Below are positions 43,632 through 63,670 of a stretch of 64,000 nt of DNA, piece after piece. The position numbers were made by a program, and so were the translations under genes. This DNA is from Fibrobacterales bacterium (GTDB taxonomy: Bacteria; Fibrobacterota; Fibrobacteria; Fibrobacterales; JAOPTW01): assembly GCA_051532055.1 (NCBI GenBank), contig JAOPTX010000034.1, positions 39,747 to 103,746 of the forward strand. The letters are read 5' to 3'. Within the stretch, counting starts at the first letter, position 1. Every line of letters begins with the position of its first letter. The notes under the pieces were generated by a model. The model saw only the letters and a list, made by a program, of their open reading frames with translations. It searched no databases and was not told the origin of the DNA.

Positions 43632-43638
43632 GAACATC

Positions 43639-44511
43639 ATGATAAAAAGAACCCTATTCTTAGCATCATGGAGCCTTATACTCATAACCTGTGCCCCCAA
43701 TAATGATTTAACACTTGGGGCAGTAAGTGACGATATTGCGGATATTGGTTCAGAATGGGAACTTATCTGGACTGATGATTTTGAAGACCCTTCACTCGAC
43801 ACCGACAAGTGGAAAATAAAAACGGGCAACGGTGAATGGGGCTGGGGGAACGGCGAACTCCAAAACTATCGAGAAGAGAATCTCTCTTTTCGTGATGGAG
43901 CTCTCGTGATTACTGCCAAAAAAGAACGTATCGGTATGTGCCATAATGGTTCCTGTAACTACACTTCAGCTAAAATTGAAACGTCTGACAAATTTTCTTT
44001 TAAATATGGCAAGATCGAAGCTCGTATGAAGTTACCACCAGGCCAAGCTATGTGGCCCGCCTTTTGGCTCATAGGTGATAATATCAGTTCATGGCGATGG
44101 CCCAAATGTGGTGAAATCGACATTATGGAATTTAAAGGACGCCTCCCTACAGTCACTCAAGGAACCATACACTGGGGAGATGACTCAGACCACAAAATAT
44201 CTATCGGGCATGATGCAAATGCAAATATCGATCTCACCGAAGACTTCCATGTGTATGGTCTCATATGGGAAGAATCTAAATTTACTTTTACTTTAGATGG
44301 CACAAGTTTTGGTACTGTAGCAATTAGTGGCAGCAACACTACTGATGTAATGAACCCCTTTGGCAGTGACTCACGAAATGACGATCAAGAATTTTTCATA
44401 ATATTAAACCTTGCTGTTGGAGGAATATTTGATGAGTGGATTGAACCAGAACAAAGCTTTAGCACCAGTGAATTTTTAATAGATTGGGTCCGAGTTTCCC
44501 AATTAAAATAG
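43639..44511 (+). CDS. GH16 laminarinase-type endo-beta-1,3-glucanase, probable lipoprotein
   Basis: GWGNGELQNY, YTSAKI, YGKIEAR, MWPAFW, catalytic EIDIME, ILNLAVGG; signal peptide ending LILIT-C. Confidence 0.92.
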   Translation: MIKRTLFLASWSLILITCAPNNDLTLGAVSDDIADIGSEWELIWTDDFEDPSLDTDKWKIKTGNGEWGWGNGELQNYREENLSFRDGALVITAKKERIGMCHNGSCNYTSAKIETSDKFSFKYGKIEARMKLPPGQAMWPAFWLIGDNISSWRWPKCGEIDIMEFKGRLPTVTQGTIHWGDDSDHKISIGHDANANIDLTEDFHVYGLIWEESKFTFTLDGTSFGTVAISGSNTTDVMNPFGSDSRNDDQEFFIILNLAVGGIFDEWIEPEQSFSTSEFLIDWVRVSQLK

Positions 44512-44641
44512 CCCAAATAACCTTACATATAAACGAAATTAGAACAATAAACAGAAAACAAATGAGCAATTAACTAAACAAAGTATACCCACCAATATGA
44601 TGAGGGTATATTTAACACAAACATACATAATGGGGATCGAC

Positions 44642-45289
44642 ATGAAGAAGCTAATAACGATATCGATTGTAGCGCTATTTACAATAATCGGATGTGCTGC
44701 AGAAACAATAACACCAACTGAGAATGGCAGTTCTGATGACGCAAGTCAAAGTTCTGATGAAGGTTCTGAGATTGCTGATGATGCATTTATAATTTTTAAT
44801 GAAACAATGTCTGAGGGATATGACCTTGGTGCATTCCCCGCTAAAGGCCCCACGATTGATGGGGAAAATGAAGTCCTTTCTATGATCTTTGAAAAAGGAC
44901 AATCGGTTTGGATATTTCCAGATGAAGAGTTTGTAGATATCTCAGAACATTCATCAATGAAATTCACATACACCTCTGATGAAGTATTTTCTGTTCGTGT
45001 TATGTGGGGTGAATTACCTGATGGCCACAATTCTGAAGGGGCTCCTTACTGGGAAGGTAACTATGATGATAAAGAGGGCGGATTTATTATTGCAGACTCA
45101 ATCTCTGCTTCAAGTTCACCAAAAGATTTTAGCATAGATTTTGACGACATGCTTGACCCCGCACATCAGTTTCATGTTGAAGAAAGTGACTTTGAAGGCG
45201 ACAAATCTAATGACCTTTCAAAAGTGCATCAGATTGTTTTTCTCTCAGAAAACAGCACTCTTCTTATCAATAAACTGAGATTCGAATAG
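44642..45289 (+). CDS. Acidic lipoprotein with putative carbohydrate-binding beta-sandwich
   Basis: MKKL..IIG-C lipobox, Ser/Asp linker, VDISEHSSMKF..FSIDFDDM..DLSKVHQIVF..INKLRFE. Confidence 0.7.
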   Translation: MKKLITISIVALFTIIGCAAETITPTENGSSDDASQSSDEGSEIADDAFIIFNETMSEGYDLGAFPAKGPTIDGENEVLSMIFEKGQSVWIFPDEEFVDISEHSSMKFTYTSDEVFSVRVMWGELPDGHNSEGAPYWEGNYDDKEGGFIIADSISASSSPKDFSIDFDDMLDPAHQFHVEESDFEGDKSNDLSKVHQIVFLSENSTLLINKLRFE

Positions 45290-45396: not shown

Positions 45397-47256
45397 TTAT
45401 AGTACATCTGTTCCCCGTTCAGTATAATGGGTATGGAGTAATGAGTGGGCCTTATGCCCCAAAATACCATCAGTGAGAAACTCCGCATATATTCTATGTA
45501 CAGCAGGATTCTCATGTGACTTACGTATTGCATACGATTCATCTTCTGCATAGATCGCTTTCATACGCTCCTTCCGAACAGCTTCAGTCGTTGGAATTGG
45601 CTGACCACCTCCTCCAATACACCCTCCAGGGCAAGCCATGAACTCAATAAAGTGACACTCACTAAACTTACCACCCTCTTTAATATCCTCCAACACCTTT
45701 TTAGCATTGGCAGTACCATGAGCAATAGCCACTTTAAGAGTCGCCCCTTTGAGCCAGTCCCAGTTATCAAGATACTGATTTAGAATATCAGGTACTGGTC
45801 CTACTGTTGCAATAGGGAGCTCCACATACTTGATCCCTTCAAAACCTCTCAGTGGAACAATGTTTGTCTTTTCAAAAAGGTCTTCAATTTTTTCACCCGT
45901 AACCAGTTCGTACACCGTTCTGATTGCGGCTTCCATCACACCACCTGTCGTACCAAATATCACACCAGACCCTGTCGCATCACCAAATGGATCATCAAAA
46001 TCAGATTTTTCCTCATCAGGAAGGTGGATACCATGCTCTTTAATCATCTTGCCCATTTCGCGGGTAGTAAGTACATAGTCAACATCTTTGTGACCACTAT
46101 CGTTCATCTCAGGCCTATCACACTCATATTTCTTTGCAGAACAAGGCATAAGTGAAACTGATACAATCTCCTCTGGCTTAAGATTATTACATTCAGCAAA
46201 ATAGGTCTTCATCACGGTACCAAACATCTGCTGTGGTGATTTTGCTGATGAGAGATTGGGGATCATTTCAGGATAGAAGTGCTCAAGATACTTTACCCAC
46301 CCTGGTGAGCACGAGGTAAACTGTGGTAACGCCACATCATCTTTTTTTGCAACAAGTGCATTAAACAACCTCAATATCAGCTCTGTACCCTCTTCAAAAA
46401 TAGTGAGATCAGCTGAAAAGTTTGTATCAAATACTTTGTCAAACCCCATTTTCCGAATAGCAGTATTCATTTGATAGGTCATTGAAGTCCCAGGCGTTAG
46501 CCCAAAAATCTCACCTATACCTGCCCTTGGTGCAGGAGCGGTCTGAATCACCACAGTCTTACTTGGGTCGGCAATCTCATCCCACACATTTCGTTTAGCA
46601 TTCTTAACTGTCAGAGCCGCAGTCGGACACCGATTGACACATTGTCCACAATTAATACAGACGACATCATCCATAGGCATATCATTGAAAGTCCCTATAT
46701 ATGACTCTGACCCTTTATCAAATGCTTCATATGCCCCAACTTCTTGAAGGTCGACACAGGTACGAATACAACGTCTACACAGCACACACTTGTCCATATC
46801 CCGGACAATTGAGTAGGCCGTATCATCAACGACAAAATCTCGCTCTACTTTTTTACCAAAAGTGAACTCTTTGATATCATGTATATCTGCAAGCTCTCTT
46901 AATTCACAATTACCATTACGCTCACAGGCATAGCATTCCCCAACATGCTTAGATAGAAGGAGTTCAACAACATGTTTCCTAGCTTCTCGTACTTTTTGCG
47001 TCTGAGTCCGAATGGTCATCTCTTGATTAATTGGAAAAGCACATGATGCCTGCAGTGTACGCATACCTTCTATTTCAACGACACAGACCCGACATACACC
47101 ACCAAGCTCAAGGTCATCATGCTGACACAGTGTTGGGATCTTAATACCTACTTCTCGAGCAGCCATTAAGATAGTTGTCCCTGTAGGCACGCGAACTTCT
47201 TTACCATCTATGGTCACTTTTATCAGACCACCAATTTGGTTTTGTGGAGCACTCAT
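45397..47256 (-). CDS. hydA: [FeFe]-hydrogenase group A catalytic subunit (second enzyme)
   Basis: N-terminal 2Fe-2S, His-ligated 4Fe-4S and 2x4Fe-4S; H-cluster motifs FTSCSPGW, MPCSAKKYE, EFMACPGGCIGGGGQP. Confidence 0.96.
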   Translation of the reverse strand: MSAPQNQIGGLIKVTIDGKEVRVPTGTTILMAAREVGIKIPTLCQHDDLELGGVCRVCVVEIEGMRTLQASCAFPINQEMTIRTQTQKVREARKHVVELLLSKHVGECYACERNGNCELRELADIHDIKEFTFGKKVERDFVVDDTAYSIVRDMDKCVLCRRCIRTCVDLQEVGAYEAFDKGSESYIGTFNDMPMDDVVCINCGQCVNRCPTAALTVKNAKRNVWDEIADPSKTVVIQTAPAPRAGIGEIFGLTPGTSMTYQMNTAIRKMGFDKVFDTNFSADLTIFEEGTELILRLFNALVAKKDDVALPQFTSCSPGWVKYLEHFYPEMIPNLSSAKSPQQMFGTVMKTYFAECNNLKPEEIVSVSLMPCSAKKYECDRPEMNDSGHKDVDYVLTTREMGKMIKEHGIHLPDEEKSDFDDPFGDATGSGVIFGTTGGVMEAAIRTVYELVTGEKIEDLFEKTNIVPLRGFEGIKYVELPIATVGPVPDILNQYLDNWDWLKGATLKVAIAHGTANAKKVLEDIKEGGKFSECHFIEFMACPGGCIGGGGQPIPTTEAVRKERMKAIYAEDESYAIRKSHENPAVHRIYAEFLTDGILGHKAHSLLHTHYTERGTDVL

Positions 47257-48938
47257 TATTTACCCTCCTCATATCTCAATAGTTCACCTCTAAAGTGCTC
47301 TGCAATGTTCGCGAAAGCACTACTACTAGTCTGACCGAGCCCACATTTTGATGCAACAGTCATTGAATTACTGAGCTTCAATAATTCTTCTAAATACTCC
47401 TCTTCACAGTCTCCATCAACCATCTGATCGAGGCCTTCAAGTATTACCTCATTACCTTCTCGACAGGGAGTACACTGTCCACATGACTCCTCAGCAAAAA
47501 ATTCCATAAAATTAATTGCTACTTGTCTCATATCTGTTTTCTGTCCAAAAACCATTATCGAGCCTCCCGTAGGTATATCTTCAAATGCAATGGATCGGTC
47601 AAAATCCTTCGCAGGGATACACAACCCTGAAGCACCGCCCACCTGTACCGCTTTAGCATCACTACCACCGCACTCTGCCAACATCTCTTTAACCGTAATA
47701 CCATATTGATATTCATAAATTCCCGGTTTATCACAGTGCCCTGATATACTCAATATCTTTGTGCCTTTCGATTGCTCAGTACCTAGAGCGTTAAACCATT
47801 CTCCACCTTTAACAGTGATAAATGCCACACTTATAAAAGTCTCTACATTATTTACGGATGTGGGTTTACCCATAAACCCGGTATCAACAGGAAAGGGCGG
47901 ACGATTACGAGGCTCACCACGCTTTCCTTCCATAGACTCAATAAGTGCAGTCTCTTCACCACAGATGTACGCCCCTGCACCCATTCTAATTTGTAGTTCA
48001 AAATTAAATCCATCTTTTCCACAAATATCTTTACCTAAAAGATTTGCGGCTACCCGTTCAGCAATTACTTCTTCAAGCTGATCCTTCATGTAGTAATACT
48101 CTGCTCGTAGATAAATTAAACCATATCGAGCCCCAATTGCATAAGCACCAATAGTCATTCCTTCCAGTAATTCATGGGCTCGCTCAACAAGAAGCAACCG
48201 ATCTTTAAATGTCCCCGGCTCACCCTCATCTGCATTGCAAACAATATATTTTTCATTACTTTGTGCAGCGCCAGCCAGTTGCCACTTCATCGCAGTTGGG
48301 AACCCAGCCCCACCTCGCCCTCGAATACCAGAAGCCCTTATCTCTGCAATAAGGTCTGGGCGACTCATAGAGAGAGCCTTCTGTATTGCCTCCCCCTTAT
48401 CAATACTCGCCTCTAATATGGCATCTTTTTTATGAATATTAAAGGGAACATCTACAGCACCCACACCTGACGCCTCAATAATTTCCGGAACCATTGTTGT
48501 AGTCACTTTTGCATAGAGTTTTTCATTGACGAGCACTCCAGGACCTTGATCACAAAGTCCCATACAGTTTGCATATTCAAGCGTCCATTCTCCATTCTCA
48601 CTTGTTTCACCTATAGCTATCCCAAGAGCTTCTTCAAAGGCCTCAACTATTTCTGCTTTCCCTGAAAGGTCACAGGATATAGTTTGGCATATGCTCACCA
48701 CATTTTTTCCCGCCGCCTCTTGCGTTCTGAAAAATGAATAAAATGATGCGACTCCCTCTACCTCTGCTTTATGTATATCTAAAGCCGTTGCCACCTCTTG
48801 CAAAACCAAAGGAGGTAACCACCCATATTCATTCTGCATATCATGGAGTATTGGCATGAGTGCGGACCGCGCCACTCCATGCTGTCCAGAGAGTTTCTTA
48901 ACTTTTAGCTGGACTTTCATACGATCTAAATCTGGCAT
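47256..48938 (-). CDS. Fused NuoE-NuoF-like (HydC-HydB) diaphorase subunit without C-terminal ferredoxin domain
   Basis: CQTISC..CMGLC 2Fe-2S; GRGGAGFPT, NADEGEPGTFKDR, GAGAYICGEET, GGASG, SCGQCTPCREG..CGLG, then ends. Confidence 0.93.
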   Translation of the reverse strand: MPDLDRMKVQLKVKKLSGQHGVARSALMPILHDMQNEYGWLPPLVLQEVATALDIHKAEVEGVASFYSFFRTQEAAGKNVVSICQTISCDLSGKAEIVEAFEEALGIAIGETSENGEWTLEYANCMGLCDQGPGVLVNEKLYAKVTTTMVPEIIEASGVGAVDVPFNIHKKDAILEASIDKGEAIQKALSMSRPDLIAEIRASGIRGRGGAGFPTAMKWQLAGAAQSNEKYIVCNADEGEPGTFKDRLLLVERAHELLEGMTIGAYAIGARYGLIYLRAEYYYMKDQLEEVIAERVAANLLGKDICGKDGFNFELQIRMGAGAYICGEETALIESMEGKRGEPRNRPPFPVDTGFMGKPTSVNNVETFISVAFITVKGGEWFNALGTEQSKGTKILSISGHCDKPGIYEYQYGITVKEMLAECGGSDAKAVQVGGASGLCIPAKDFDRSIAFEDIPTGGSIMVFGQKTDMRQVAINFMEFFAEESCGQCTPCREGNEVILEGLDQMVDGDCEEEYLEELLKLSNSMTVASKCGLGQTSSSAFANIAEHFRGELLRYEEGK

Positions 48939-48946
48939 AAATCCCC

Positions 48947-49315
48947 CTACCCTAATAACTCTGAAACTTTTTCTATCAATGTCTCAGGCTTTGCAGGTTT
49001 ATGAATGAAAATATCACATGGAATCATCTCATCATCCCGCTCATATGAGAAACCTGTCACTTCATTTATTGAGCTCAACATAATAATTGGTTTCTTAAAA
49101 CCATTTCGCTTAAGATCCTGTACCATAGTTATACCATCATCAGGGTCAGTCATCATAACATCTTGAATCAACAGGTCAGGAGATTCCGACTCAACTGCAG
49201 CCATTCCATCTAATCTATTATGCGCCGAAACAACGGTGTGACCCTTTGCCTCAAGAGTTACTCTTATCATCTCAACCATATCGAGATCATCATCTACTAC
49301 CAATATTTTTGACAT
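48947..49315 (-). CDS. Single-domain response regulator
   Basis: VVDDD, IQDVMM, MLSS and HKP receiver motifs; GAGGAG RBS. Confidence 0.92.
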   Translation of the reverse strand: MSKILVVDDDLDMVEMIRVTLEAKGHTVVSAHNRLDGMAAVESESPDLLIQDVMMTDPDDGITMVQDLKRNGFKKPIIMLSSINEVTGFSYERDDEMIPCDIFIHKPAKPETLIEKVSELLG

Positions 49316-49373
49316 ATCTACTCCTCGCCTCATTAATCATTAGAACACAAAAATTACAACTTTGTATTTTAAT

Positions 49374-49403
49374 AATATACTCACTGTGTGAATTTGATAA
49401 CAG
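49374..49403 (-). promoter_or_regulatory. Rex-like box next to a -10 element for the receiver / hydB' / hydA' unit
   Basis: GTGTGAA-TTTG-ATAACAG (49386-49403); TATATT on the minus strand at 49374-49379. Confidence 0.6.
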
Positions 49404-49541
49404 AAAAATTCTGATTCTAAGATAACTTTACTATAAATAACTGCTCATTTAATTGAGAGTAAGCTAAAAAAAGTAAAAATGAGACTTTTTAGTAATTAAT
49501 AGGGCATTCAGGATAGTATTGAGATATGTACAGCTATATTA

Positions 49542-50669
49542 TCAATCGTCAGCATTAAATAGAGTAAGCGAGAAAGTAGTCCCCACATCCTCTGCACTCG
49601 TGACATCAATTGATCCATTATAGAGATCTGATATTTTTTGAAGTATTGAGAGACCAAGACCGCTCCCTAATACATTTTTCGTCTTTTCGTTTTTAACCCG
49701 AGAGAACTCTTTAAATAACCCTTTCAAATCTTGTTCAGACATACCAATACCACTATCTTTACAGATTATCTGCACACCATTTTCAAGCGGGCTCAAATAA
49801 AGATCAACGGTTCCACCATCTTTATTGTATTTAACTGAGTTAGTCACTAAGTTATTTAATACAATTTGCATTTCAACCGAATCTGCACGAAAGGGAAGCG
49901 CATCAGGCACATGAAGAGTTATAGTTATTTTTCTCTCACGACAATCAAGGGCAACACTATCAAGAGAGCCTTGCGCTTGTTCGACCATATCAATATCTTC
50001 AAAGGTACGCACTTTATTGCCCGATTCGAGCCGTGTCAAGTCGAGTAGATCAAGAATCATTTTACGCATGCCAGTGAGGCGTATAATTGATCGATCAATC
50101 ATAGTTTCATAGCTCGCAATATCCTCACCCACGGCACGACTCTTCATGATATCAAGATACCCTTCAACAGCAGCAAGTGGAGCTTTGAGTTCATGACCAA
50201 GCACCGAGATAAATTGAAATCTCACTTGTCGTTTTTCTTGCTCTAACTGTTTGGCCTTTCTTAGGAGAATAATACTTTTCGCGGCCTTTGTAATTCTACT
50301 CCGTAATTCTTCAGGAGTAAAAGGCTTTGAAATAAAGTCAAATGCACCATTCTTAGTTGCACTTATCGCTGCATCAATAGTTGCAAACGCAGTAGCAATT
50401 ATTGTTAACGGCTTATTTTCTAATTCATTTGCGATATGCAATACTTCTATTCCCTGAATACCAGGTAATTTATGGTCGAGAATAAGTATATCGAATGGTT
50501 GATATTTAAGTTTCTCAACGGCCTCTTCACCAGAAGCAACAGTAGTAATAGAGAAACCGACATCAGAAGATAGTTCTTTTAAAGGTAGTGTAAAATTTCG
50601 TAAAGATCTTTCGATACCAATACGCATTCCGAATTCATCATCACATACAAGAACTTGAAGATTAATCAC
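49542..50669 (-). CDS. Hybrid kinase: N-terminal receiver + HisKA + HATPase
   Basis: VCDDE, ILDHKL, SKP; GHELKAPL; NLVTNSVKYN, DSGIG, GSGLGL; GTG start. Confidence 0.93.
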   Translation of the reverse strand: MINLQVLVCDDEFGMRIGIERSLRNFTLPLKELSSDVGFSITTVASGEEAVEKLKYQPFDILILDHKLPGIQGIEVLHIANELENKPLTIIATAFATIDAAISATKNGAFDFISKPFTPEELRSRITKAAKSIILLRKAKQLEQEKRQVRFQFISVLGHELKAPLAAVEGYLDIMKSRAVGEDIASYETMIDRSIIRLTGMRKMILDLLDLTRLESGNKVRTFEDIDMVEQAQGSLDSVALDCRERKITITLHVPDALPFRADSVEMQIVLNNLVTNSVKYNKDGGTVDLYLSPLENGVQIICKDSGIGMSEQDLKGLFKEFSRVKNEKTKNVLGSGLGLSILQKISDLYNGSIDVTSAEDVGTTFSLTLFNADD

Positions 50670-50700
50670 ACACTACCTATACTAATATACTTCCAAACAA

Positions 50701-50730
50701 CTACCCAACAATGATACCATTATTGGGTAG
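50701..50730 (-). terminator. Hairpin between receiver and hybrid kinase genes (terminator or attenuator)
   Basis: Minus strand CTACCCAATAATG-gtat-CATTGTTGGGTAG followed by TTGTTT. Confidence 0.55.
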
Positions 50731-50739
50731 GATTTAAAA

Positions 50740-51135
50740 CTATTTATCTAACAATATGGTCACTTCACGAAGAAGTTGCTCTTTACGGATTTTTTTCTCG
50801 AGAAATGAGTCGACTTTGATCCATTCTTTCTCTTGACGGGTTGTTGCATCAAAATGAATGCTCGTCTCACTAGTCACTGCAGTAACCATAATTACCGGAA
50901 TCTCAGGATTAAGTTTTTTAACTCTATGTGCAAGAATAAAACCACTGTCCTTATTCTCCATCATAAGATCAAGAACTGCGAGATCAAACCCACCCTTCTC
51001 AATAACGTCCAATGCCTCAACTTCAGATGTTGCCTCAATAACGGTGTATCCTTCTGATTCGAGGTACATCCGTGCTTGAATTCTTACATCTTCATCATCA
51101 TCTACAACAAGTATGGTTGCATTTATATCTGCCAT
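50740..51135 (-). CDS. Single-domain response regulator
   Basis: VVDDD, VLDLMM, MVTAV, LEKK. Confidence 0.92.
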   Translation of the reverse strand: MADINATILVVDDDEDVRIQARMYLESEGYTVIEATSEVEALDVIEKGGFDLAVLDLMMENKDSGFILAHRVKKLNPEIPVIMVTAVTSETSIHFDATTRQEKEWIKVDSFLEKKIRKEQLLREVTILLDK

Positions 51136-51150
51136 GGTTTCTCCATCTAT

Positions 51151-53175
51151 TTAAGGTAAATCATTTTGCTTCACTGGAATGGTTATCACAAATGTAGTTC
51201 CAGTTCGGCCTTTTGTAAAATCAGTATTGCTCTCAAAGGAAATTGTTCCTTTGTGGTTTTTAACTATCCCATAAGAGACTGCAAGTCCAAGACCAGTGCC
51301 TTGCCCTATAGTTTTAGTCGTAAAAAACGGTTCAAATATTCGCGAACTTATACTTGACTCGATTCCCGGGCCAGAATCTATGATCTCTATACGTACATTT
51401 TCTTCACCCGGTAGTACTTTCAACCCAATTTCGCCACCGTCGGGCATCACTTCCATTGCGTTATTAATAATATTTGTTATTACTTGAGACATTTGTAACG
51501 TATCGACTTCAACCATCGCATCTGTCTCAGGGAATTGTTTAACAAAAAATATGTCATTTGGTTTTAGTAATGAGCGGGAGGCCTTTTCGACTACCGACAC
51601 AACATTAACTTCTTCGAATCTTATTCTATCTTTATGTGAAAAGTTGAGAAGTCCTCCAACAATTTTTTGACACACCTGAGTCTGTTCAATAATCATTTCA
51701 AGATCGTCTTGAAACCCAGGGTATTTTCCACACTCTTCAAGCAATAGATTTGAGTAAAGAAGAATAACGCCTAGAGGGTTATTGATCTCATGGGCAATTC
51801 CAGCTGACAACCGCCCCATACTCGCCATCTTCTCGCTATGCTGTAGTGCTTCTTGAGTTTCTTTGAGTTGAACATTTGAGCTACTCAACTCATCTGCTGT
51901 CTTCCTCAGCTTATCTATAGTATAAGGAAGGCACATAGCATCTTCGGCCAGATCTTTATGAATCGCAATCGCATGATCAACACACGTTGCATACCCACAC
52001 GCTCCACAATTAAGCTCATCGAGTGGATCAAACTTACCCATATCATTAAGGATTTTCTTCAACACTTCTGCCGAAGGGATCTCAATCCGTTGATCATTTA
52101 CAGAAAAGGAAGTCTTCAGAGATATATCTATAAACTCTTTCATTTCTTTTTTATGTTCAGTAAAATGCTTGTTCGAAATACGCCGTTTAGCATATTTCGA
52201 TATAAGACCAGTACGCTTTGTCTTGGAACTCTTTGATGTCATTCCAGGACCCATCATACACCCTTCACAACAGAGCGCATCAACATACTGAATATCTTCT
52301 ATTGTTGACTCTGTAAGCTCTTTAAAAAATTGTGCTAAATTATTTTTCCCATCTATAGAGACAATGCCACTATCAATCATGTTTAAAGATGAAGCCCGTG
52401 GAAGGCCACGTGTAATAGGAAAAAGTGCACCCTTGTAGGAGAACGGAGGGTCAAAATCTTGTTCGTCAATATCCTCTGGCTCTAACTTTGATTTATCAAA
52501 GAGCTCACGAAGCTCTTTAAAGGTAAGTACCGCTTTAACTGCATGTGAATCATCAAACATCGCTTCAGCTTTTTTGGCAATACATGGCCCAACAAATACA
52601 ATCTGTGCTTTTTCTCCATAAATCTTTTGAGCTACATGAGCAGTAGCGACCATAGGAGATACAATCTTTGCCAAATTTTCTACAAGCTCTGGCACATATT
52701 TTTCAACATATGATACCACTGCAGGGCACGAAGTAGAAATAAGAATCTCGTTCTTATTAGTTGATTCAGCATTAACTTTTTTAACCCGTTCATACTCTTT
52801 GCGATACTCTTCTGCAACGAGATCTGCACCAAAGGCAGTTTCGACTACATAGTCAAATCCAATTGCTTTAAGGGAGCCAACAAATTGTTCGAGAGAAAGT
52901 TCTTCAAATTCAGCAGGAAAGCTTGGCGCTACGATAGCGATAACTTTTTGTTTTGTATCAAGAATATCTCCGAGATGATCGGAGATACTCTGAAATTGTT
53001 TGGCGTTTTGACTGCAAACCATAACACAATTTCCACACAAAATACATCGATCCGATACAATCTGTGCTTGGCCATCTTCAACTTTGATCGCCTTAACCGG
53101 ACATTCCCGCACGCATGTAAAGCAGACTCTACATGCGTCGGGGACCGTATATATTATACTTTGCGGTTTCGCCAT
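51151..53175 (-). CDS. Sensory [FeFe]-hydrogenase-like domain (group C) fused to a histidine kinase
   Basis: 2x4Fe-4S; variant H-cluster motifs STSCPAVV, GPCIAKKAE, DALCCEGCMMGPG; CGACGYATC..C cluster; AHEINNPL, DSGPG, FFTTK..GTGLGL. Confidence 0.92.
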   Translation of the reverse strand: MAKPQSIIYTVPDACRVCFTCVRECPVKAIKVEDGQAQIVSDRCILCGNCVMVCSQNAKQFQSISDHLGDILDTKQKVIAIVAPSFPAEFEELSLEQFVGSLKAIGFDYVVETAFGADLVAEEYRKEYERVKKVNAESTNKNEILISTSCPAVVSYVEKYVPELVENLAKIVSPMVATAHVAQKIYGEKAQIVFVGPCIAKKAEAMFDDSHAVKAVLTFKELRELFDKSKLEPEDIDEQDFDPPFSYKGALFPITRGLPRASSLNMIDSGIVSIDGKNNLAQFFKELTESTIEDIQYVDALCCEGCMMGPGMTSKSSKTKRTGLISKYAKRRISNKHFTEHKKEMKEFIDISLKTSFSVNDQRIEIPSAEVLKKILNDMGKFDPLDELNCGACGYATCVDHAIAIHKDLAEDAMCLPYTIDKLRKTADELSSSNVQLKETQEALQHSEKMASMGRLSAGIAHEINNPLGVILLYSNLLLEECGKYPGFQDDLEMIIEQTQVCQKIVGGLLNFSHKDRIRFEEVNVVSVVEKASRSLLKPNDIFFVKQFPETDAMVEVDTLQMSQVITNIINNAMEVMPDGGEIGLKVLPGEENVRIEIIDSGPGIESSISSRIFEPFFTTKTIGQGTGLGLAVSYGIVKNHKGTISFESNTDFTKGRTGTTFVITIPVKQNDLP

Positions 53176-53193
53176 GGGTTCAATGAAATAGTG

Positions 53194-54918
53194 CTATTTC
53201 AACACTTCTCTTTTATTATATGACGTATGCAAAAGCTCATGAGATTTATGACTCAAAGGCTTCTCAAGATAATCTTCGTACAGTTTCTGAATCGACTCAT
53301 TATTGTGTGAACAACGTACTTTACTCTCTTTATCAATTTTATAAAGTGCACCCATACGTTCAACAACTTTATCCTTATCAAGGTCAAAAATCTGTCCGCC
53401 ACCGTTAATGCATCCACCATGACACGTCATCACTTCCATAAAGTGAATTTCTTCTTCACCTTTACGAATCTTGTCAAGAAGGTCACGTGCATTATTAGTA
53501 CCACTTACTACAGCTACATTAAGTGAAAGATCACCAATTTTTACTGTTGCTCTTTTGATTCCATCAAATCCACGGACAGCCTCAACCTCAGGTTCAACCA
53601 TTTCTTCACCAGTAATGAGAAAATGCGCAGAACGAATTGCCGCTTCCATAACACCACCAGTAGCTCCAAAGAGTTTACCTGCAGATGAACGTTCTCCAAA
53701 AGGTAGATCTGGTTCAGATGAAGGCATATCTTCGAAGTTGATACCTTTCATTTTAATAAGATCTGCAAGTTCGCGTGTTGTGAGTACCGCATCGAGATCA
53801 GGATTATGTTTTGCATCCATAAGCTCTGGACGTTCAGACTCAAATTTCTTCGCTGTACATGGCATAACCGATACACTGAATATTTTTTCAGGAGGTATGT
53901 TATTCTTTTCAGCAAAATATGATTTGATGATCGCACCCATCATCTCTTGTGGAGATTTACAGGTAGAGAGGTTATCAATCATATCTGGATAGAACTGCTC
54001 TACAAATTTAATCCACCCTGGTGAACACGATGTCATCATTGGTAGTTTTCCACCATTTTTAATACGATGTACCAGTTCAGATCCTTCTTCCATAATGGTA
54101 AGGTCAGCACTAAACGATGTGTCAAATACTTGATCAAATCCCATTTGACGAAGCGTTGCAACAAGTTGCCCACTTACATCAGTACCAGGTTTTGCATTAA
54201 ATGCTTCAGCGATAGTAACTGAAATTGCAGGCGCGTGCTGTATGACAACATATTTATCTGGGTCATACAGTGCTTCCATAACACGTTTTGTATGTGACTT
54301 CTCTGAGAGAGCACCTGTTGGACAAACCATGATACATTGACCACAGTTAATACAACTAGAGGTATTAAGGTTTTCACCAAAAGCACATCCAACAATCGTT
54401 TCTGATCCACGATTAATAAAATCAAGAGCCGAAACAGCTTGATCTTCTTCACACACGCGTACACATTTACCACAGAGAACACATTTGTCTGGTTCACGAG
54501 TGATTGATGCAGATGATTGATCGATATGGTTACCCATTGGTTTACCAGCGAATGATTTCTCACGCACGCCATACTCAACGGCAAGACTCTGAAGATCACA
54601 GTTACCTGAACGAACACAATAAAGACAGTCATTCGGGTGACGAGATAATAGAAGCTCAACAATAGTTTTACGCGCTTGCTCTGCTTTTGGGGTATGAGTT
54701 TTAACTTTCATACCTTCATTTACAGGGTATGAGCAACTTGGAATAAGTCCACGTGCACCCTCTACTTCAACAACACACATTCTACATGCACCTGTTGGTG
54801 TTTTATCTTTCATGTGGCAAAGAGTTGGCACATCGTAGCCCGCTTCGCGTATAGCATCGATGAGTAGTCCGCCTTCTTCAACTTTAGCTGGTTTTCCGTT
54901 TATTTCTAAATTTACCAT
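53194..54918 (-). CDS. hydA: [FeFe]-hydrogenase group A3 catalytic subunit
   Basis: F-clusters plus MTSCSPGW, MPCTAKKFE, EVMTCHGGCINGGGQ. Confidence 0.96.
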   Translation of the reverse strand: MVNLEINGKPAKVEEGGLLIDAIREAGYDVPTLCHMKDKTPTGACRMCVVEVEGARGLIPSCSYPVNEGMKVKTHTPKAEQARKTIVELLLSRHPNDCLYCVRSGNCDLQSLAVEYGVREKSFAGKPMGNHIDQSSASITREPDKCVLCGKCVRVCEEDQAVSALDFINRGSETIVGCAFGENLNTSSCINCGQCIMVCPTGALSEKSHTKRVMEALYDPDKYVVIQHAPAISVTIAEAFNAKPGTDVSGQLVATLRQMGFDQVFDTSFSADLTIMEEGSELVHRIKNGGKLPMMTSCSPGWIKFVEQFYPDMIDNLSTCKSPQEMMGAIIKSYFAEKNNIPPEKIFSVSVMPCTAKKFESERPELMDAKHNPDLDAVLTTRELADLIKMKGINFEDMPSSEPDLPFGERSSAGKLFGATGGVMEAAIRSAHFLITGEEMVEPEVEAVRGFDGIKRATVKIGDLSLNVAVVSGTNNARDLLDKIRKGEEEIHFMEVMTCHGGCINGGGQIFDLDKDKVVERMGALYKIDKESKVRCSHNNESIQKLYEDYLEKPLSHKSHELLHTSYNKREVLK

Positions 54919-54934
54919 GATTTCCTCACTAATC

Positions 54935-56920
54935 CTAATACGCTTTTATCGCGTCAAATGCACATACATCCATACATGCACCACAACTGATACAATCTTC
55001 TTGATTTATTATATGAATGCCTTTTTTCTCACCATCAATACACTGAGTCGGACATTTTTTTGCACATATCGTACAACCAGTACATGCATCATCAATAATT
55101 TCAAATGTCAATAACTCTGTACATGCTCCAGCAGGGCAGCGACGTTCATAAATGTGCGCTTCAAATTCATCTCTGAAAAACTTCATTGCAGATTTAATTG
55201 GATTCGGCGCTGTTTGTCCAAGTCCACACAGACTTGATGCACTAATTACTTCAGTAAGTCGTTCAAGATTCATAACACCTTTGAAGCGCTCCAAACTTTG
55301 GTTTTCAGCATCTGCACCGCGACCTTTAGTCATGCCTTCTAGAATTTCGAGCATTACTCGAGTACCTTCACGACACGGAATACATTTACCACAACTTTCA
55401 CGCTGGATAAAGCCCATAAAGAATTTTGCTACGTCAACCATACAGGTATCTTCATCCATAACAACCATTCCACCAGAACCGATCATAGCACCGACTTCAA
55501 TGAGTGATTCATAATCGATGTTGATATCAAGGTGTTGAGTTGGGATACAGCCACCAGATGGGCCCCCAAACTGAACTGCTTTAAATTCTTTGTCATGCTC
55601 AATACCACCAGCAACATCAAAGATCACTGTGCGAATTGAAGTACCCATAGGAATTTCAACAAGACCAGCACGTTTAACTTTTCCAGAAACTGCAAATACT
55701 TTTGTTCCTTTAGAAGTTGCAGAACCCATGGAAGCATACCACTCGGCACCATTAGTAACGATTGCTGGTATATTTGCAAGGGTCTCTACATTATTAATAA
55801 TCGTTGGGTTTTGGAAAAGTCCGCTTTTCGCTGGGAATGGTGGACGAGGGCGTGGCATACCACGTTTACCTTCGATTGAGTGAATCAGTGCAGTCTCTTC
55901 ACCACACACAAATGCTCCCGCACCAACTTTGATGATGACATCGAGATCAAATCCACTATTATAAATATTGTTTCCAATAAGCTTATACTCTTTAGCTTGA
56001 GCAATAGCATCTTTAAGGTTTGCAATAGCAAGAGGATACTCTGCACGAATATACACATATGCTTTATTGGCGCCAATTGCATATGCTGCAATTGCAAGAC
56101 CTTCAACAAGTTTATGAGGGTCACCCTCAATAACTGCACGGTCCATAAACGCACCTGGGTCACCTTCATCCGCATTACAGATAAAATATTTTTGTTCAGA
56201 CTCTTCGCCCAGTGCAAATTTCCACTTTCGACCCGTAGGGAACCCTCCCCCACCTCGACCACGAAGGCCTGATTTTTCAACTTCATCACAAAGCTCTTCA
56301 CGAGTCATGTTGTTTATTACTTTTAGAAGCCCGCTATATCCACCACGTGCAATGTATTCATCAACATTTATGGGGTCAGCAATACCGCAATTTTTAAGAA
56401 CAACACGTTCTTGAATTTTGAAAAATGGGTGTTCATGCATATAAGGCAGGTTATCCCAATTTTCTTCTTCATTTGCAGATTGAAACTGTCCAAGAAGTTT
56501 ATTAACACTCACCTGACTAGAAAAAATGTCACCCATGAGATCATCAACTTTATCTTCTGTGATCTGTTGGAATGAGAGACGACTTTTACCGGGGAGCTTC
56601 ACATCAACCATTGGCTCTGAAGTACAGAGACCAATACAACCAACGCGTACTACATCGGCATCGAGATTCTTATCAGCAAGATATGCAGTTATTTTCTCTA
56701 ATGCTTTGCCAGCACCAGCCGCCATACCACATGTTCCCGCACCAATATAGATAATTGGTTTTACATTTTTTTCACCGCGGAGTTCTGAAAACCTTATATC
56801 AAGTTCATCTTTAGAAAGTTTTGCTTCTTTTGAAGAAAACACGGTTCCAATAAACTGTTCTTTAGTATCAACTGGAATAAGATCCAAGTTCTTATGAATA
56901 TCGTACGTTACAACAGCCAT
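54935..56920 (-). CDS. hydB: NuoF-like flavoprotein subunit of bifurcating-type hydrogenase
   Basis: N-terminal thioredoxin-like domain, NADEGDPGAFMDR, GGPSGG, SCGKCIPCREG, C-terminal 2x4Fe-4S (CTGCTIC, CISCGAC). Confidence 0.95.
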   Translation of the reverse strand: MAVVTYDIHKNLDLIPVDTKEQFIGTVFSSKEAKLSKDELDIRFSELRGEKNVKPIIYIGAGTCGMAAGAGKALEKITAYLADKNLDADVVRVGCIGLCTSEPMVDVKLPGKSRLSFQQITEDKVDDLMGDIFSSQVSVNKLLGQFQSANEEENWDNLPYMHEHPFFKIQERVVLKNCGIADPINVDEYIARGGYSGLLKVINNMTREELCDEVEKSGLRGRGGGGFPTGRKWKFALGEESEQKYFICNADEGDPGAFMDRAVIEGDPHKLVEGLAIAAYAIGANKAYVYIRAEYPLAIANLKDAIAQAKEYKLIGNNIYNSGFDLDVIIKVGAGAFVCGEETALIHSIEGKRGMPRPRPPFPAKSGLFQNPTIINNVETLANIPAIVTNGAEWYASMGSATSKGTKVFAVSGKVKRAGLVEIPMGTSIRTVIFDVAGGIEHDKEFKAVQFGGPSGGCIPTQHLDINIDYESLIEVGAMIGSGGMVVMDEDTCMVDVAKFFMGFIQRESCGKCIPCREGTRVMLEILEGMTKGRGADAENQSLERFKGVMNLERLTEVISASSLCGLGQTAPNPIKSAMKFFRDEFEAHIYERRCPAGACTELLTFEIIDDACTGCTICAKKCPTQCIDGEKKGIHIINQEDCISCGACMDVCAFDAIKAY

Positions 56921-57399
56921 TATTTTTCCTTCTTTTTATACGTTCTGATGATTTTTTTAACATTACTTGAATCAACATACGCATGAAATTCATTATTGAT
57001 TGCGATAATGGGCGCAAGTCCACATGCACCAATACACGCTACAACTTCAGTACTGAAGAGTCCATCTTTAGAAGTATCTCCTGTTGGAACTTCAAGAAGG
57101 TTTTCAAGAGCAGTAACAATTGACTCTGACCCCTTAACGTGACACGCAGTTCCACGGCAAATCTGAATGTGATATTTCCCAAGAGGCTTAAAACGGAATT
57201 GGTTATAGAAGGTTGCAACGCCATAAATCTTGCTCACTGGCAAGTTAAGGGTTTCACCAACTTGAACCACCGCTTCTTTAGACAAAAACCCTAATTCTTC
57301 TTGGACCTCTTGAAGAATTGGAATCAGCTTATCTCTACCCGCATTTGCATACTGGGCAAGAATGTTGTCTACTCCTGTTGTCTGAATAGTACTAACCAT
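56920..57399 (-). CDS. hydC: NuoE-like 2Fe-2S subunit
   Basis: GVATFYNQF, CRGTACH, CIGACGLAP; AAGGAG RBS before ATG 57399. Confidence 0.95.
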   Translation of the reverse strand: MVSTIQTTGVDNILAQYANAGRDKLIPILQEVQEELGFLSKEAVVQVGETLNLPVSKIYGVATFYNQFRFKPLGKYHIQICRGTACHVKGSESIVTALENLLEVPTGDTSKDGLFSTEVVACIGACGLAPIIAINNEFHAYVDSSNVKKIIRTYKKKEK

Positions 57400-58039
57400 C
57401 TGCTTTTTCTCCTTTAGACATTTGATTATATGCAAAGAATGCTGTTTTTTCAATTGTCATTGTGATATCAATATTTTCTAGGTAAATTTCTTTAGGGACG
57501 ATTAATTGAACTGGAGCGAAGTTAACAATACCCTTAACCCCTGCTGCAATTAAATCATCAGCAATTGCCTGAGCATCACACCCTGGAACCGCTATAATCC
57601 CCACATTAATCGCTTCTCGTTTTACAATTGCTTGTAGTTGAGAAATATGATAACTGTTACATCCAGCTATCACTCTATCAATTTTCGTTTCATCATCATC
57701 AAAGGCCGCTTCAATAGTAATATTCATGCGAACCCGTGAGAAATAGGAGAGTATCGCTCTTCCTAAATTACCCACACCAATAATGCCTGCTCTTTGTGCA
57801 GTACTCGAATTGAGTACTGCATTGATCTCTTTTAAGAACTCCTCAACTAAGTACCCTTTTTTTGATGAGCCCCTTACACTGAGGTCCATCAAATCACGTC
57901 GTACTTGTGCAGATGAATTATTTACCCCAACTGCCAAATCGTGGGAAAAGATATAGAGCTTGTCACTATTCTTATAGTTCTGAAGCACTTTTCTATATCT
58001 GCAAAGTCTCTCGATACTTTTGGGTGATATGTCTGCCAT
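57392..58039 (-). CDS. rex: Redox-sensing transcriptional repressor Rex
   Basis: IERLCRY, SAQVRRDL..GY winged helix; GVGNLGRAIL Rossmann motif; GIVNFAP. Confidence 0.93.
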   Translation of the reverse strand: MADISPKSIERLCRYRKVLQNYKNSDKLYIFSHDLAVGVNNSSAQVRRDLMDLSVRGSSKKGYLVEEFLKEINAVLNSSTAQRAGIIGVGNLGRAILSYFSRVRMNITIEAAFDDDETKIDRVIAGCNSYHISQLQAIVKREAINVGIIAVPGCDAQAIADDLIAAGVKGIVNFAPVQLIVPKEIYLENIDITMTIEKTAFFAYNQMSKGEKADG

Positions 58040-58066: not shown

Positions 58067-58321
58067 TCGTTATCAAATTAACGTTCTAGTAGTAACACTC
58101 ATACAGCCTTCATTTTCACTGCTGTTACCTTGATAACGTAACTTCACATAATATACCATTTTCATGTGATAAAAGAAACGTTTAGATTACAATTTGTTCT
58201 CAAAGTTGTAATTTTTTTCACGCTCTATTGTTACATTGATAACGATGATATGGCTCTAACGATCTAAAAATGGGTATTATTTTAACAAAAACCGATTATT
58301 TTGTTGTGAATTATCTAACGA
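58067..58321 (-). promoter_or_regulatory. rex-hyd promoter with multiple Rex-like boxes
   Basis: 18-mers at 58067, 58122, 58206, 58228 and 58304 resembling TTGT(G/T)A-N6-T(C/A)ACAA; extended -10 TGGTATATT on the minus strand at 58150-58158. Confidence 0.65.
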
Positions 58322-61300
58322 TGGCTAATTTGCCTTTAGCAAGAACACCGTCATCTCTTGTGCCAATTGTGTACATATAGACCCCGGTAACCACCTCTCG
58401 CCCTGCATTATTTCGCATATTCCAGCAAAAACTAGGAAGTGCACCAGAGTCAGGGTCAGCATTAAAGCTTGGGCTTACATTCAGCTTTCTTGTGCTGTAT
58501 ATAAGCTGACCAAGCACTGAGTAGATTCTAACATCTATATCTTCATCAGTATCAATCTTAGAACTAATAGTGTTGAGGTTTTTAAATTCAATACAGGGAT
58601 CACCGTCTTCATTGATCTTATCTGTGTGTTGGCTATTTTCAAAAACAAATGGATTAGGGAAGATGTAAAAGCTGGTTGGTGTCACTACAAACCTAAACGA
58701 ATATGAATCATTTAAAACCGCAGTATCTTTACACCCAAAGCTATATCGCTTATATAAATATGAGCCATCACCGGAACCATTACCATCTAAAGATCGTCCC
58801 CAGGAATCAATAATACTATCAGCAAGGATAACCAAAATCGTATCTTTTGAATAAAACTTTCTAAGTGGCTTTAAGATTAGTGAACTATCACCACGGGTCC
58901 CTTTAACAAACTTCAAATCCACCTCTTCCCAATTATTATAGGCAGTACGTACTTCGACCGTCCCATTTGTTCCAGCTTTTAAACTATCAGAGTCGATCGG
59001 CCGCAAAGTATCTGCTTGGGCAGTATCAAACCCTATAATGTACTGTCGTACAATACGATTATTAAAATTAATTCGAATCTCAGAGTCTGGTGAAATGCTA
59101 TTTAAAGGTGTTCCAGCAGACACATCAGATACTTCAACTGTTGCTGGAACAGTAGAAGCAACCTTAAATGGTGCTGCACTTATTTTTGTTGAATATATTA
59201 AGGATTTCTCTGTGGTGTCCTTTATAAAGTCCTTTTCAAGATTGAGCCTCGTACCCACGCTATCCCGAATATTATTTGAGACAAATATTCTAATATCGTC
59301 TCCTTTTATAAAGCTAAAAGGAGCGGGTGTAATACCTTCAAAACTACACACATTATAATACGGAGTAAAAACAACAGTATCTGTATACAATGGGACAGGC
59401 TGACCACGATAGTCATACGCTAAATTTGTTGAATACAAACTACCGCCCCCATCATAGAGCGCCTTTGAGTACATCTGCGCCCTTTCGGGAATCGCCCCAA
59501 TAAGACACGCTGAGTCAGTAGGAACAATAGTACAATATGCAATACTATCCCTTAAGGAATACACTTTTAAGTATTCATCAAGGCCCACTTTAGAAACCGG
59601 CTCAGAAAAATGAATTCTCAGTTGAGAAAATGCAGGTATCACTGGAGCTGCTCCCTGCGTTATAGGTATCACTAATGTAGTATCAAGAGGATCTGGTGAA
59701 AACCGTTCAATTGAGATGGTGGGAAGGTCATTGAACTCGACGCGAAAGGGAATCTTTAATAGTGGTTGAAAAAAGTCATTCGATTGGATAAGCAAGGTAT
59801 CTTCTAATACACGATCACCGACCTCATTCGATACATCCCAGAAAAAGTCAAATAAAAGACTATCACCATCCGAGAGGCGTATTGGGTTTTTGAGGTGATT
59901 ACTATCAGTTCGAATGATTACAGGTTTCGATTGGTCTTGCCACTTCATTTCGTAATTGAGCCACGGTGAATAATCAATCCCATTCATATTAAACACCGAG
60001 AAGACTTCTAAATCCCGTGTACCTTTTGAAAAAAGACTCATATGTACCGTATCTCTCATAATATCAGTATTAAGAATAAGTTCAATATCCCCAAGGCTCG
60101 CTTTAGCATCCGAGAAGTCCCCTTCTGCAGCTCGCTGAGTATCAAGCCTCGGATACTTAATTTTAAGAGTATCTGAAACACATCCGCCACCAATATCACA
60201 GGTTGTAATTTCCACATCAGGTGGATTCAATTCAAAAAGATGCGTCAATCCATCACCACGATATACTTCATCACGAACAACTGTATCTCCCGTTGAGGGT
60301 TGTACCGTATATATACTATCAAAGGTACAGCAAATATTATTTGAATCATACCGCAAAAACCGCCAATCCAAAGTAGAGCTATCTCCATTAATTCCATCAA
60401 TATCAAAAGCAATACCTTCTAAGTTCATGCTAATAAAAGGATGAATATCTATTTCAGGGTCTTCACGGTCGGGGTTCGTTAAATCATTCCAGAATAGCGT
60501 CCCAGGGTTACTGTTAATATCTATGGTATCATCCACCGTGGCTCCCGTAATATCCCAAGGTAATATTGAAATAACTGAATCAAGTTGGGGGAAATGATTG
60601 GGAATAAGCCGAAACCATAAAGAGATAGTATCATCGACATCACTGAGAGAAACAGTAACCGTATCGGGTATTGTATCAACCCCTATCAATGGTATCATCC
60701 GCGGGTCACTATCAATAGGGCCTGGGAGCGCCGGAAAGAGATAGGTCGAATCAGAAGGAACATCAATTATCGTATCTGAATAAAGAAGATCACTATTATG
60801 CCACCACACAGAAACAACTGCATCATTTGAGTCTTTGGTCATGAGGGTCACCCATGCAGTATCACCTACATTTATTGATAAAGTAGCACCCGAGACAATA
60901 GTGTCCCGAATCGAATCATTACCATTAATACGAGGTACTACAATCGAAACAATAGCCTCAGGAACAATGTTATAATAATCAAATACTAAAGAATCCATAT
61001 TCATTTGCAGCCCCCCAGTACTCTCCCAACCAAGAGGGTCACGAGACATAAACTTTAAGGTATAGGCGCTATTCACAATATTCTTTGGAGCAATTTTTAT
61101 TACTCCTTTATAGGAACCTGTAGTCGGTGTTAAGTTGATAAGAGAGTCGGTGGTGACGGAGCCATTTTTTGCGTAAATATTTAACCCATTGGTATTATCA
61201 TGATCATAGGCTGAGACGGCTACATACACGGTATCTAGCCGATTCACCACTCGACGAGTACTATTATTAAATACCGCACCGAGAATCCATGAGCTATTTT

Positions 61301-63218: not shown

Positions 63219-63229
63219 ACTTCCATCAT

Positions 63230-63670
63230 CTATTCGAGAAATCGTTTTCTTTGACTTATATCATCCAAAAATTTTGTTTCTATAACATTCTGTTCTTTTT
63301 TAAATTCAGCTTTTTTCTTATCACGTATTATTTCTAATGCTTTTTTATTCTGTGTCGCTCGTATGAGAAGTCCTCTCTTTGCCTCGACTACAGTATGCTG
63401 CTGTTGAATATCTCCAATTTTTTGTTCTATTCTCCTAAAAAGGTCCTGTTGATAATTAATGAACTGCATATACTGTTCACCCCCTACGTTCATATTCAGC
63501 AACGCCCCCTGCTGCTGGGCAATTTCGTGACGCTCTTCATCCATACTATCGAGCTCTCGTTTCATTGTAGCTTCAAGTTGCACCGCTTCACCAAGAACCA
63601 TTTTGGCATCTTCTTCCAATTTTTCACGATAACTGAGCAATGCTTGAAGCTTAAACCGAAATCTTTTCAT
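63230..63670 (-). CDS. fliJ: Flagellar export protein FliJ
   Basis: MKRFRFKLQALLSYREKLEE, coiled coil, EQ..LDD; downstream of fliI. Confidence 0.9.
   Translation of the reverse strand: MKRFRFKLQALLSYREKLEEDAKMVLGEAVQLEATMKRELDSMDEERHEIAQQQGALLNMNVGGEQYMQFINYQQDLFRRIEQKIGDIQQQHTVVEAKRGLLIRATQNKKALEIIRDKKKAEFKKEQNVIETKFLDDISQRKRFLE

Follow-up and report, generated by a model that had tools for sequence, protein, structure and literature searches.

Ten genes in the window, the whole 64,000-nucleotide stretch of Fibrobacterales DNA analysed here, were predicted from their sequences to encode a bifurcating-type [FeFe] hydrogenase, HydABC, and an NADH-only-type enzyme, HydC-B/HydA', with the genes of a phosphorelay between them. 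Complex modelling indicated that REC2, a stand-alone receiver encoded directly before the NADH-only enzyme, is likely to dock on the beta subunit of that enzyme beside its NADH site. What is added here is this predicted, specific docking of a receiver on a beta subunit, with a matching patch in the beta sequence; the parts are all of known kinds. In the reading that we favour, and to which we give slightly less than an even chance, REC2 bound beside the NADH site would switch the enzyme through phosphorylation by the kinases of the cluster, while Rex would set transcription.

All ten open reading frames (ORFs) lie on the minus strand between positions 45397 and 58039 in the order rex-hydC-hydB-hydA-hydrogenase-kinase-REC1-REC-kinase-REC2-hydC-B-hydA'. 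This order had been proposed from the letters alone (the sequence-only reading) and was confirmed by the ORF coordinates and by Pfam and NCBIfam, from which the domains of the ten proteins were assigned. The intergenic gaps range from -8 to 18 bp, except for 70 bp between REC1 and REC-kinase and 226 bp between REC-kinase and REC2. The two catalytic subunits, both group A alpha subunits, are 44% identical, and REC1 is a paralogue of REC2 (32% identity). The features of the cluster are listed below, with the basis of each assignment in brackets.

57392-58039, minus strand: rex, NADH/NAD+-sensing repressor, 215 amino acids (cut-offs of NCBIfam NF003994-6 exceeded)
56920-57399, minus strand: hydC, gamma subunit, 2Fe-2S (Pfam, NCBIfam)
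54935-56920, minus strand: hydB, bifurcating-type beta subunit, 661 amino acids (Pfam, motifs)
53194-54918, minus strand: hydA, catalytic subunit, 574 amino acids, with TSCSP, MPCTAKK and MTCHGGC (Pfam, NCBIfam, motifs)
51151-53175, minus strand: fusion of a group C-type hydrogenase domain with a histidine kinase, 674 amino acids, H462 (Pfam, alignment, model)
50740-51135, minus strand: REC1, stand-alone receiver (Pfam)
50701-50730, minus strand: 13-pair terminator-like hairpin between REC1 and REC-kinase (pattern match only)
49542-50669, minus strand: REC-histidine kinase without a sensor domain, 375 amino acids, GHELK (Pfam, motif)
48947-49315, minus strand: REC2, stand-alone receiver, 122 amino acids, D52 and K106, predicted partner of the NADH-only beta subunit (homology, complex model)
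47256-48938, minus strand: hydC-B, non-bifurcating-type gamma-beta fusion, 560 amino acids (Pfam, motifs)
45397-47256, minus strand: hydA', catalytic subunit, 619 amino acids, with TSCSP, MPCSAKK and MACPGGC (Pfam, NCBIfam, motifs)

Predicted docking of REC2 on the NADH-only beta subunit

Among 46 genome loci found with HydC-B, 25 held an orthologous-type beta subunit (at least 47% identity plus EPG[TM]FKD), and a REC2-family gene stood directly before gamma in 16 of these. Among the nine loci without one, the upstream sequence is shorter than 400 bases in two, and no gamma was recognised in another. The reverse search, covering the best 80 of 405 confirmed REC2 matches, detected this same gamma directly downstream of REC2 in 10 of the 11 loci scoring at least 142 bits, the eleventh meeting a contig edge 89 bases on. 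All six visible beta subunits beside the best of these REC2-family loci carry EPGTFKD, and weaker receivers were observed near other EPGTFKD modules in four loci. REC2 accompanies the NADH-only enzyme in several phyla irrespective of the kinase present: the neighbouring kinases vary, being GAF kinases, membrane kinases or a receiver-kinase, and only 5 of the 25 loci have the sensor in the fetched flank.

A model of REC2 with the beta subunit scored 0.67, compared with 0.00 for the best of three controls. Of the solved complexes, 116 of 157 attained the mark used for docking, as did 2 of 215 mismatched pairs; these counts apply only approximately when own alignments are used. Model runs agreed in at least 87% of contacts, and the predicted local distance difference test (pLDDT) value of the partners was at least 85. 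The modelled contacts involve residues 192-201, 217-226 and 347-353 of beta and residues 57-70 and 87-98 of REC2. We know of no complex like this one, and the 24 Protein Data Bank (PDB) matches to the REC2 profile were ordinary receivers. L221 and F349 of beta are among the contacts, and F349 aligns by offset with F205 of Nqo1, which together with F70 stacks the NADH adenine (PMC11677225). The combination of R193 with a small residue (A, G or S) at position 224 was present in 32 of 33 receiver-adjacent beta subunits and in none of the eight orthologues without an adjacent receiver. It was also present in 2 of 30 bifurcating betas (two more were unaligned) and in 2 of 14 other betas, both of them members of the orthologue clade without a scorable upstream context. 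A quick tree placed the receiver-less betas as sisters of receiver-linked ones in two places.

Several observations weigh against this reading. The R193/224 patch was picked after the complex model had been seen; the beta subunits compared are related, with the eight receiver-less ones amounting to about five independent types; and receiver-less refers to the adjacent genes only. The contact residues of REC2 are not more conserved than its other residues (mean of 0.59 versus 0.64). In three loci from Ignavibacteria, a REC2-like gene (128-130 bits) is retained next to the sensor, and no hydA' orthologue was found in these three genomes (best match, 44-46%). Conversely, no full-length hydrogenase-kinase was found in two of the five genomes checked, Holophaga foetida and one Phycisphaerae genome, both of which have REC2 and the enzyme. 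As GAF or membrane kinases adjoin many copies of REC2, H2 is not the universal input. One weak single-protein search for a fusion of REC2 with HydC/B yielded none, the 10 longer proteins all lacking a hydrogenase subunit domain. In the window itself, REC2 could be transcribed separately, as the 226-bp gap holds a promoter-like site of its own. No description of a receiver binding a hydrogenase was found in a literature search outside of which lay most subscription papers and the HydDB, Hydrogenedentota and Losey supplements; these supplements may show the cluster.

Enzyme types, sensor kinase and relay

In the published scheme (T. maritima numbering), bifurcating enzymes have A/E232 with M234, F367 and GGPSG, and non-bifurcating NADH-dependent enzymes have T/S232, K/S/A234, Y367 and no GGPSG (PMC7311640). 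HydB carries A257, M259, F337 and GGPSG at 452-456, with PGAFM starting at 255, and has the two C-terminal 4Fe-4S motifs (613 and 643) of the B3/B4 criterion. HydC-B carries T243, K245, Y324 and GGASG at 434-438, with PGTFK starting at 241, and ends after a single 4Fe-4S domain. Motif positions and Pfam hence bore out what had been claimed from the letters, namely, DPGAFM, GGPSG and a C-terminal 2x4Fe-4S domain in HydB and EPGTFK and GGASG without a C-terminal ferredoxin domain in the fused beta. The published residues supported the types assigned to the two betas, and a third criterion absent from that claim, F337 in HydB and Y324 in HydC-B, also fitted. The ligands of the B2 site (as described in PMC9304861) in HydB, C493, H589, C595 and C600, align with those of 7t2r_B, with Thr at the variable position. 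The N-terminal 2Fe-2S motif (B5) of HydB has three of four cysteines, the first one missing, a pattern also seen in 8oh5_B and 9bov_B. By Pfam and alignment, HydC-B is without the B2 to B5 clusters, including the B2-site ligands, and it matches the HoxF chain 5xf9_A over residues 26-553. In a tree of 57 beta-domain rows made by a quick method, HydC-B fell into a group of 42 rows (support of 99), apart from the 13 bifurcating rows (100). The H-cluster motifs of HydA' are intact, L1 being the common variant TSCSP. Some bifurcating-type betas elsewhere, at L053 and L078 (1030-1172 amino acids) and L042 (1045 amino acids), have long C-terminal extensions, perhaps of the DPD/FAD type described for Hydrogenedentota.

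The hydrogenase-kinase looks intact. It has an N-terminal 2x4Fe-4S domain, an H-domain, a Cx2Cx4Cx16C motif and a histidine kinase, as expected for kinase-linked group C hydrogenases, and C150, C198, C303, C306, K201, the Cx2Cx4Cx16C cysteines (C390, C393, C398 and C415) and kinase H462 were invariant in 40 of 40 aligned homologues. Its second shell is altered, with S149 for C299, G196 for M353 and no Met at the M497 position, the positions described as replaced in TmHydS and TamHydS (PMC8163306). An AlphaFold model (pLDDT, 84.8; predicted template modelling score, 0.64) was matched by Foldseek to the hydrogenase fold, a comparison that is uninformative on cofactor binding. The H2 sensor postulated by the sequence-only reading thus held up as a candidate, and this protein is likely to read H2 or low-potential electrons. 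Such fusions are common, as 7992 of 8000 scored candidates passed an E value of 1e-50, a count that may include partial matches; the best 120 matches listed all have the full hydrogenase-kinase architecture. HydDB defines [FeFe] group C1 as 'histidine kinase-linked (putative)' (PMC5037454), while a kinase-bearing HydDB entry was placed under C3 (PMC11406978), so that either label, C1 or C3, may apply to the sensor.

By Pfam, the cluster encodes no DNA-binding domain apart from that of Rex, and the relay is without a DNA-binding output. The histidine box of the sensor kinase is of the HEINNP type, and the H[ED][LI]KxP box of the REC-kinase resembles those of other kinases found beside REC2. When the host genome was searched for a counterpart of the GAF or membrane kinase located after hydA' in other loci, the best matches were generic (25-32%).

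From the observed genes, motifs and co-occurrence and the predicted docking, we infer a ligand, a path of phosphotransfer and a direction of control. Rex would probably permit synthesis of both units as NADH rises upon anoxia in a facultative anaerobe. The hydrogenase-kinase would then probably phosphorylate REC1 or the receiver of the REC-kinase; the sensor-less REC-kinase would be the likely donor for REC2; and REC2 would probably gate the access of NADH to the NADH-only enzyme. In the most economical direction, this enzyme would be open at very low H2, making H2 from NADH and freeing reduced ferredoxin for Rnf, and would be shut at high H2, where running in reverse would undo the NADH oxidation achieved by the bifurcating enzyme. 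NADH-only enzymes reach 2-40 Pa of H2, compared with approximately 1000 Pa for bifurcating ones (PMC7311640). Closing at higher H2 would be the simplest purpose of a gate, as the NADH-only enzyme makes H2 only up to tens of Pa and above this would re-reduce NAD+. Docking of this kind would allow the NADH-only enzyme to be switched directly and not by way of gene expression. A broader proposal, which we regard as possible but short of probable, is that CheY-like receivers of a widespread family gate the NADH site of non-bifurcating [FeFe] hydrogenases under the control of phosphorylation, with receiver and enzyme forming a mobile unit driven by various kinases and serving here as an H2-sensor feedback valve that would act in seconds without transcription.

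Upstream regions and control of transcription

The regions upstream of rex and of REC2 contain the following features, to which no strand is assigned unless given.

58304-58321: Rex-type operator-like box 1 (training site; similar sequence in congener G001)
58228-58245: Rex-type operator-like box 2 (similar in G001)
58186-58217: ATTACAA-N13-TTGTAAT inverted repeat holding a shared 16-mer (motif search)
58143-58158, minus strand: promoter-like stretch, either two changes from the sigma-54-type site of L168 (without the -12 GC) or an extended -10 (inference)
58122-58139: Rex-type operator-like box 3 (matrix)
58067-58084: Rex-type operator-like box 4 (matrix)
49386-49403: weaker Rex-type box on the -35 of a sigma-70-like site at 49400-49372 (score equalled or exceeded at 144 of 5.17 million positions)
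49349-49364: second copy of the shared 16-mer, in the opposite orientation (exact match)

Operator-like boxes were sought with the Rex consensus, and their spacing also fits a sigma-54 activator site. The Rex protein, above its NCBIfam cut-offs, and the boxes before rex are consistent with the input from NADH/NAD+ proposed in the sequence-only reading. With a matrix made from the four boxes, two sites before the C53 hydrogenase/rex genes and sites before PFOR and rex-hydG were among the top 45, amid many unrelated matches. The 16-mer is identical at 58201-58216 and 49349-49364 and occurs in no other of 911 intergenic regions. As the two upstream regions resemble each other in their kinds of sites and have this 16-mer in common, the two enzyme units seem to share transcriptional inputs. 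Neither the 226-bp gap and its promoter-like site ahead of REC2 nor the missing DNA-binding output of the relay figured in the sequence-only reading. A sigma-70 scan gave 36 sites against 37.8 expected, showing no enrichment. The ATTACAA-N13-TTGTAAT repeat was rejected as a genome-wide motif, being present at 10 places with no more than one mismatch and in no pattern. RNA evidence was limited to one run with 17% of the window's words, whose 20 thin contigs cover the cluster and the flanking genes alike, making the run uninformative on expression or habitat.

One alternative is that H2 and NADH shift transcription between HydABC at high H2 and the NADH-only enzyme at low H2. The 226-bp gap with its sigma-70-like site and Rex-type box before REC2, the hairpin after REC1 and a 90-fold change of hydA2 transcripts with H2 in Ruminococcus albus (PMC10838669) are consistent with such control. 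However, the relay has no DNA-binding output, both upstream regions have the same kinds of sites, and the gene spacing suggests a single operon in 8 of 14 related loci, where 12-28 bp separate the kinase from REC2 (the remaining six have 66-322 bp). Furthermore, both enzymes were detected together in Melioribacter roseus, whose genes MROS_2480-2489 match the order by their labels and include a fused beta-gamma. According to Table S2 of PMC5492636, the exponentially modified protein abundance index (emPAI) during fermentation was 0.36-0.52 for HydABC, 0.43-0.47 for the fused beta-gamma, 0.55-0.67 for alpha and 0.33-0.43 for the receiver MROS_2486. Both enzymes and MROS_2486 were present in 3/3 fermenting and 0/3 aerobic replicates and MROS_2484 in one; these data cover one fermentative condition and no variation of H2, and emPAI is a crude measure. 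A transcriptional shift of this kind is therefore quite improbable in our judgement, and an either/or expression switch is poorly supported. The H2 and NADH switch envisaged in the sequence-only reading retained its enzyme types, Rex, sensor and maturases and lost its shift of the expression ratio.

The relay could instead act in trans, raising or lowering the whole cluster through a DNA-binding regulator from another locus, such as a sigma-54 activator that bears a receiver; the stand-alone receivers would then be shuttles or phosphate sinks. A sigma-54-type site precedes hydC in eight of nine Ignavibacteria clusters, and a conserved TTC[CT]...GGAA site was recognised by eye further upstream of hydC in L057, L060, L161, L166-L169 and L171. 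The host genome has RpoN and 14 activator domains, the 16-mer is confined to the regions upstream of rex and of REC2, and three loci have kept REC2-like genes in the absence of the enzyme, all of which would fit. In the window, however, the three upstream regions contain no match to a canonical sigma-54 promoter, and the site resembling that of the Ignavibacteria lacks the -12 GC and is accompanied by Rex-type boxes instead. A regulator in trans would also leave unexplained the persistence of REC2 beside the enzyme as kinases change, the docking model and the contact patch, and we consider it unlikely.

Host genome, relatives and known systems

The maturases on which the sequence-only reading depended were found, with hydG, hydE and hydF all above cut-off in the host genome. 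A second rex (62% identical) heads hydG-hydE-(482-amino-acid ORF)-hydF on C10 (L021:1401-7475), a second hydE match lies on C61, and there are three Rex paralogues in all. PFOR, RnfC and two haem-copper oxidase subunits are present and no NiFe hydrogenase match was obtained in this genome, which is 94% complete; these features fit a facultative anaerobe. All three designs of sensory hydrogenase occur in this genome: the kinase-fused one of the window, a phosphatase-linked one behind a third rex-hydCBA set and a chemoreceptor-fused one near a sigma-54 activator gene, the latter two lying on C53 (L019:3291-11484) and C14 (L020:4778-6712).

These features bear on another alternative, in which REC2 gates the enzyme for H2 uptake, opening it at high H2 to supply NADH for respiration or reduced end products in a form of hydrogen cycling, or in which the sensor reads the redox state. 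The haem-copper oxidase subunits and the missing NiFe match mean that the enzyme could be an uptake route. Hydrogen cycling between two FeFe enzymes was proposed in PMC11837493, uptake was raised for the second enzyme of I. album in the paper on that organism, and HydAB of Syntrophus aciditrophicus is much faster in uptake in vitro (4.8 versus 0.027 U/mg; PMC7311640). Against this stands aerobically respiring M. roseus, in which the enzyme was missing (0/3 replicates), and gating for uptake appears unlikely to us.

The cluster order recurs in loci of Ignavibacteria and Actinomycetes, being complete in L053, L057 and L060, broken in L065 and cut in L038. The sensor is present in 19 of 101 genomes of the class of L060. 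The full order was observed in seven of the 19, a one-gene interruption in one, and the receiver and NADH-only enzyme beside the sensor without HydABC in four; two have HydABC only (one at a contig end) and five have neither. In the host phylum, members of the REC2 family were detected in 2 of 296 genomes, with up to 14 candidates scored per genome. In L155, L159 and L163, the pair of sensor kinase and REC-kinase is oriented away from a second pair, a REC2-like gene and a kinase (a membrane kinase in the loci scanned), and no hydrogenase genes lie between the two pairs. A sensor kinase with 67% identity (P0088) and a close REC2 relative (P0217) are listed on one 21,584-base contig, which may represent a third relative that has the cluster in full. 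The corresponding locus of the congener G001 shows 88.6% identity between the window end and REC-kinase, inclusive, and then joins directly to the downstream genes, with a divergent REC-hydC-B-hydA' unit (41/54/64%) at another site. Thus, the bracketing of the relay by two hydrogenases described in the sequence-only reading is real in the window and dispensable, as G001 has no REC2-hydC-B-hydA' at the corresponding site. The displaced G001 cassette starts beside a 128-bp stretch (L016:1-128) that is 99% identical to the start of host contig C104 and is possibly a mobile element end.

Convergent on the cluster, at 40464-45289 on the plus strand, lie genes for a 1055-amino-acid protein without a Pfam match, a GH16 glucanase and a lipoprotein-like ORF, which are 65-79% identical to those of the congener and have diverged faster than the cluster. 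At 58311-63670 on the minus strand are fliJ and then a 1635-amino-acid exported-looking protein without a Pfam match.

The cluster offers a complete system of few and soluble parts, namely, a sensor kinase, a relay kinase, a receiver and a target enzyme, together with a residue-level prediction, and M. roseus is a cultured host with a matching gene order by labels. A gated NADH-only hydrogenase, if real, would account for the ability of fermenters to maintain the two types of enzyme without short-circuiting them and would bear on syntrophy and on biohydrogen engineering. The sequence-only reading knew of no characterised integrated switch of this kind; the general idea of an H2-dependent use of the two enzyme types where a genome has both had already been suggested by Losey in 2020 (PMC7311640).

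S. aciditrophicus HydAB shares with HydC-B/HydA' a gamma-beta fusion plus alpha, the T/K and Y residues, a non-GGPSG sequence and the lack of a C-terminal ferredoxin domain, as judged by published criteria rather than direct alignment (PMC7311640). The available text of that description includes no receiver or kinase, whereas HydC-B has a dedicated receiver beside a bifurcating-type enzyme, and the host, unlike S. aciditrophicus, is a probable facultative fermenter. HydB matches HydABC/BfuABC of T. maritima (7P5H), A. woodii (7Q4V) and T. kivui (8A6T) over approximately 600 residues with all signature residues, differing from them in the missing first cysteine noted above. T. maritima HydA has an extra C-terminal 2Fe-2S domain that Pfam did not detect in the HydA of the window.

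HydDB group C1 and the proteins TmHydS and TamHydS have in common with the sensor the 2x4Fe-4S domain, the altered C299/M353/M497 positions, Cx2Cx4Cx16C and a regulatory C terminus (PMC5037454, PMC8163306). By those accounts, the sensor differs in its directly fused kinase, the lack of PAS and an L3 motif that is one residue shorter (CCxGC). The signal output of group C sensory hydrogenases is described as an open question (PMC8163306), and the available texts on these sensors contained no biochemical test of a fused hydrogenase-kinase.

In M. roseus, MROS_2480-2489 are labelled gamma, beta, alpha, regulator, receiver, PAS kinase, receiver, fused beta-gamma, alpha and kinase (PMC3534657, PMC5492636). 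MROS_2483 is labelled a sigma-54 regulator, and its equivalence to the hydrogenase-kinase is suggested by L057, L060 and similar loci. No rex appears within these ten genes as presented in those papers, in contrast to the cluster of the window. The M. roseus authors treat all three enzymes as bifurcating and, in the available text, do not discuss the relay (PMC3534657, PMC5492636). Ruminococcus albus, with HydABC, HydA2, HydS and Rex, likewise has two hydrogenases, a putative H2 sensor and Rex, but according to the available accounts its second enzyme is ferredoxin-only, its sensor is of the PAS type and control is exerted at the transcript level (PMC10838669, PMC10084766).

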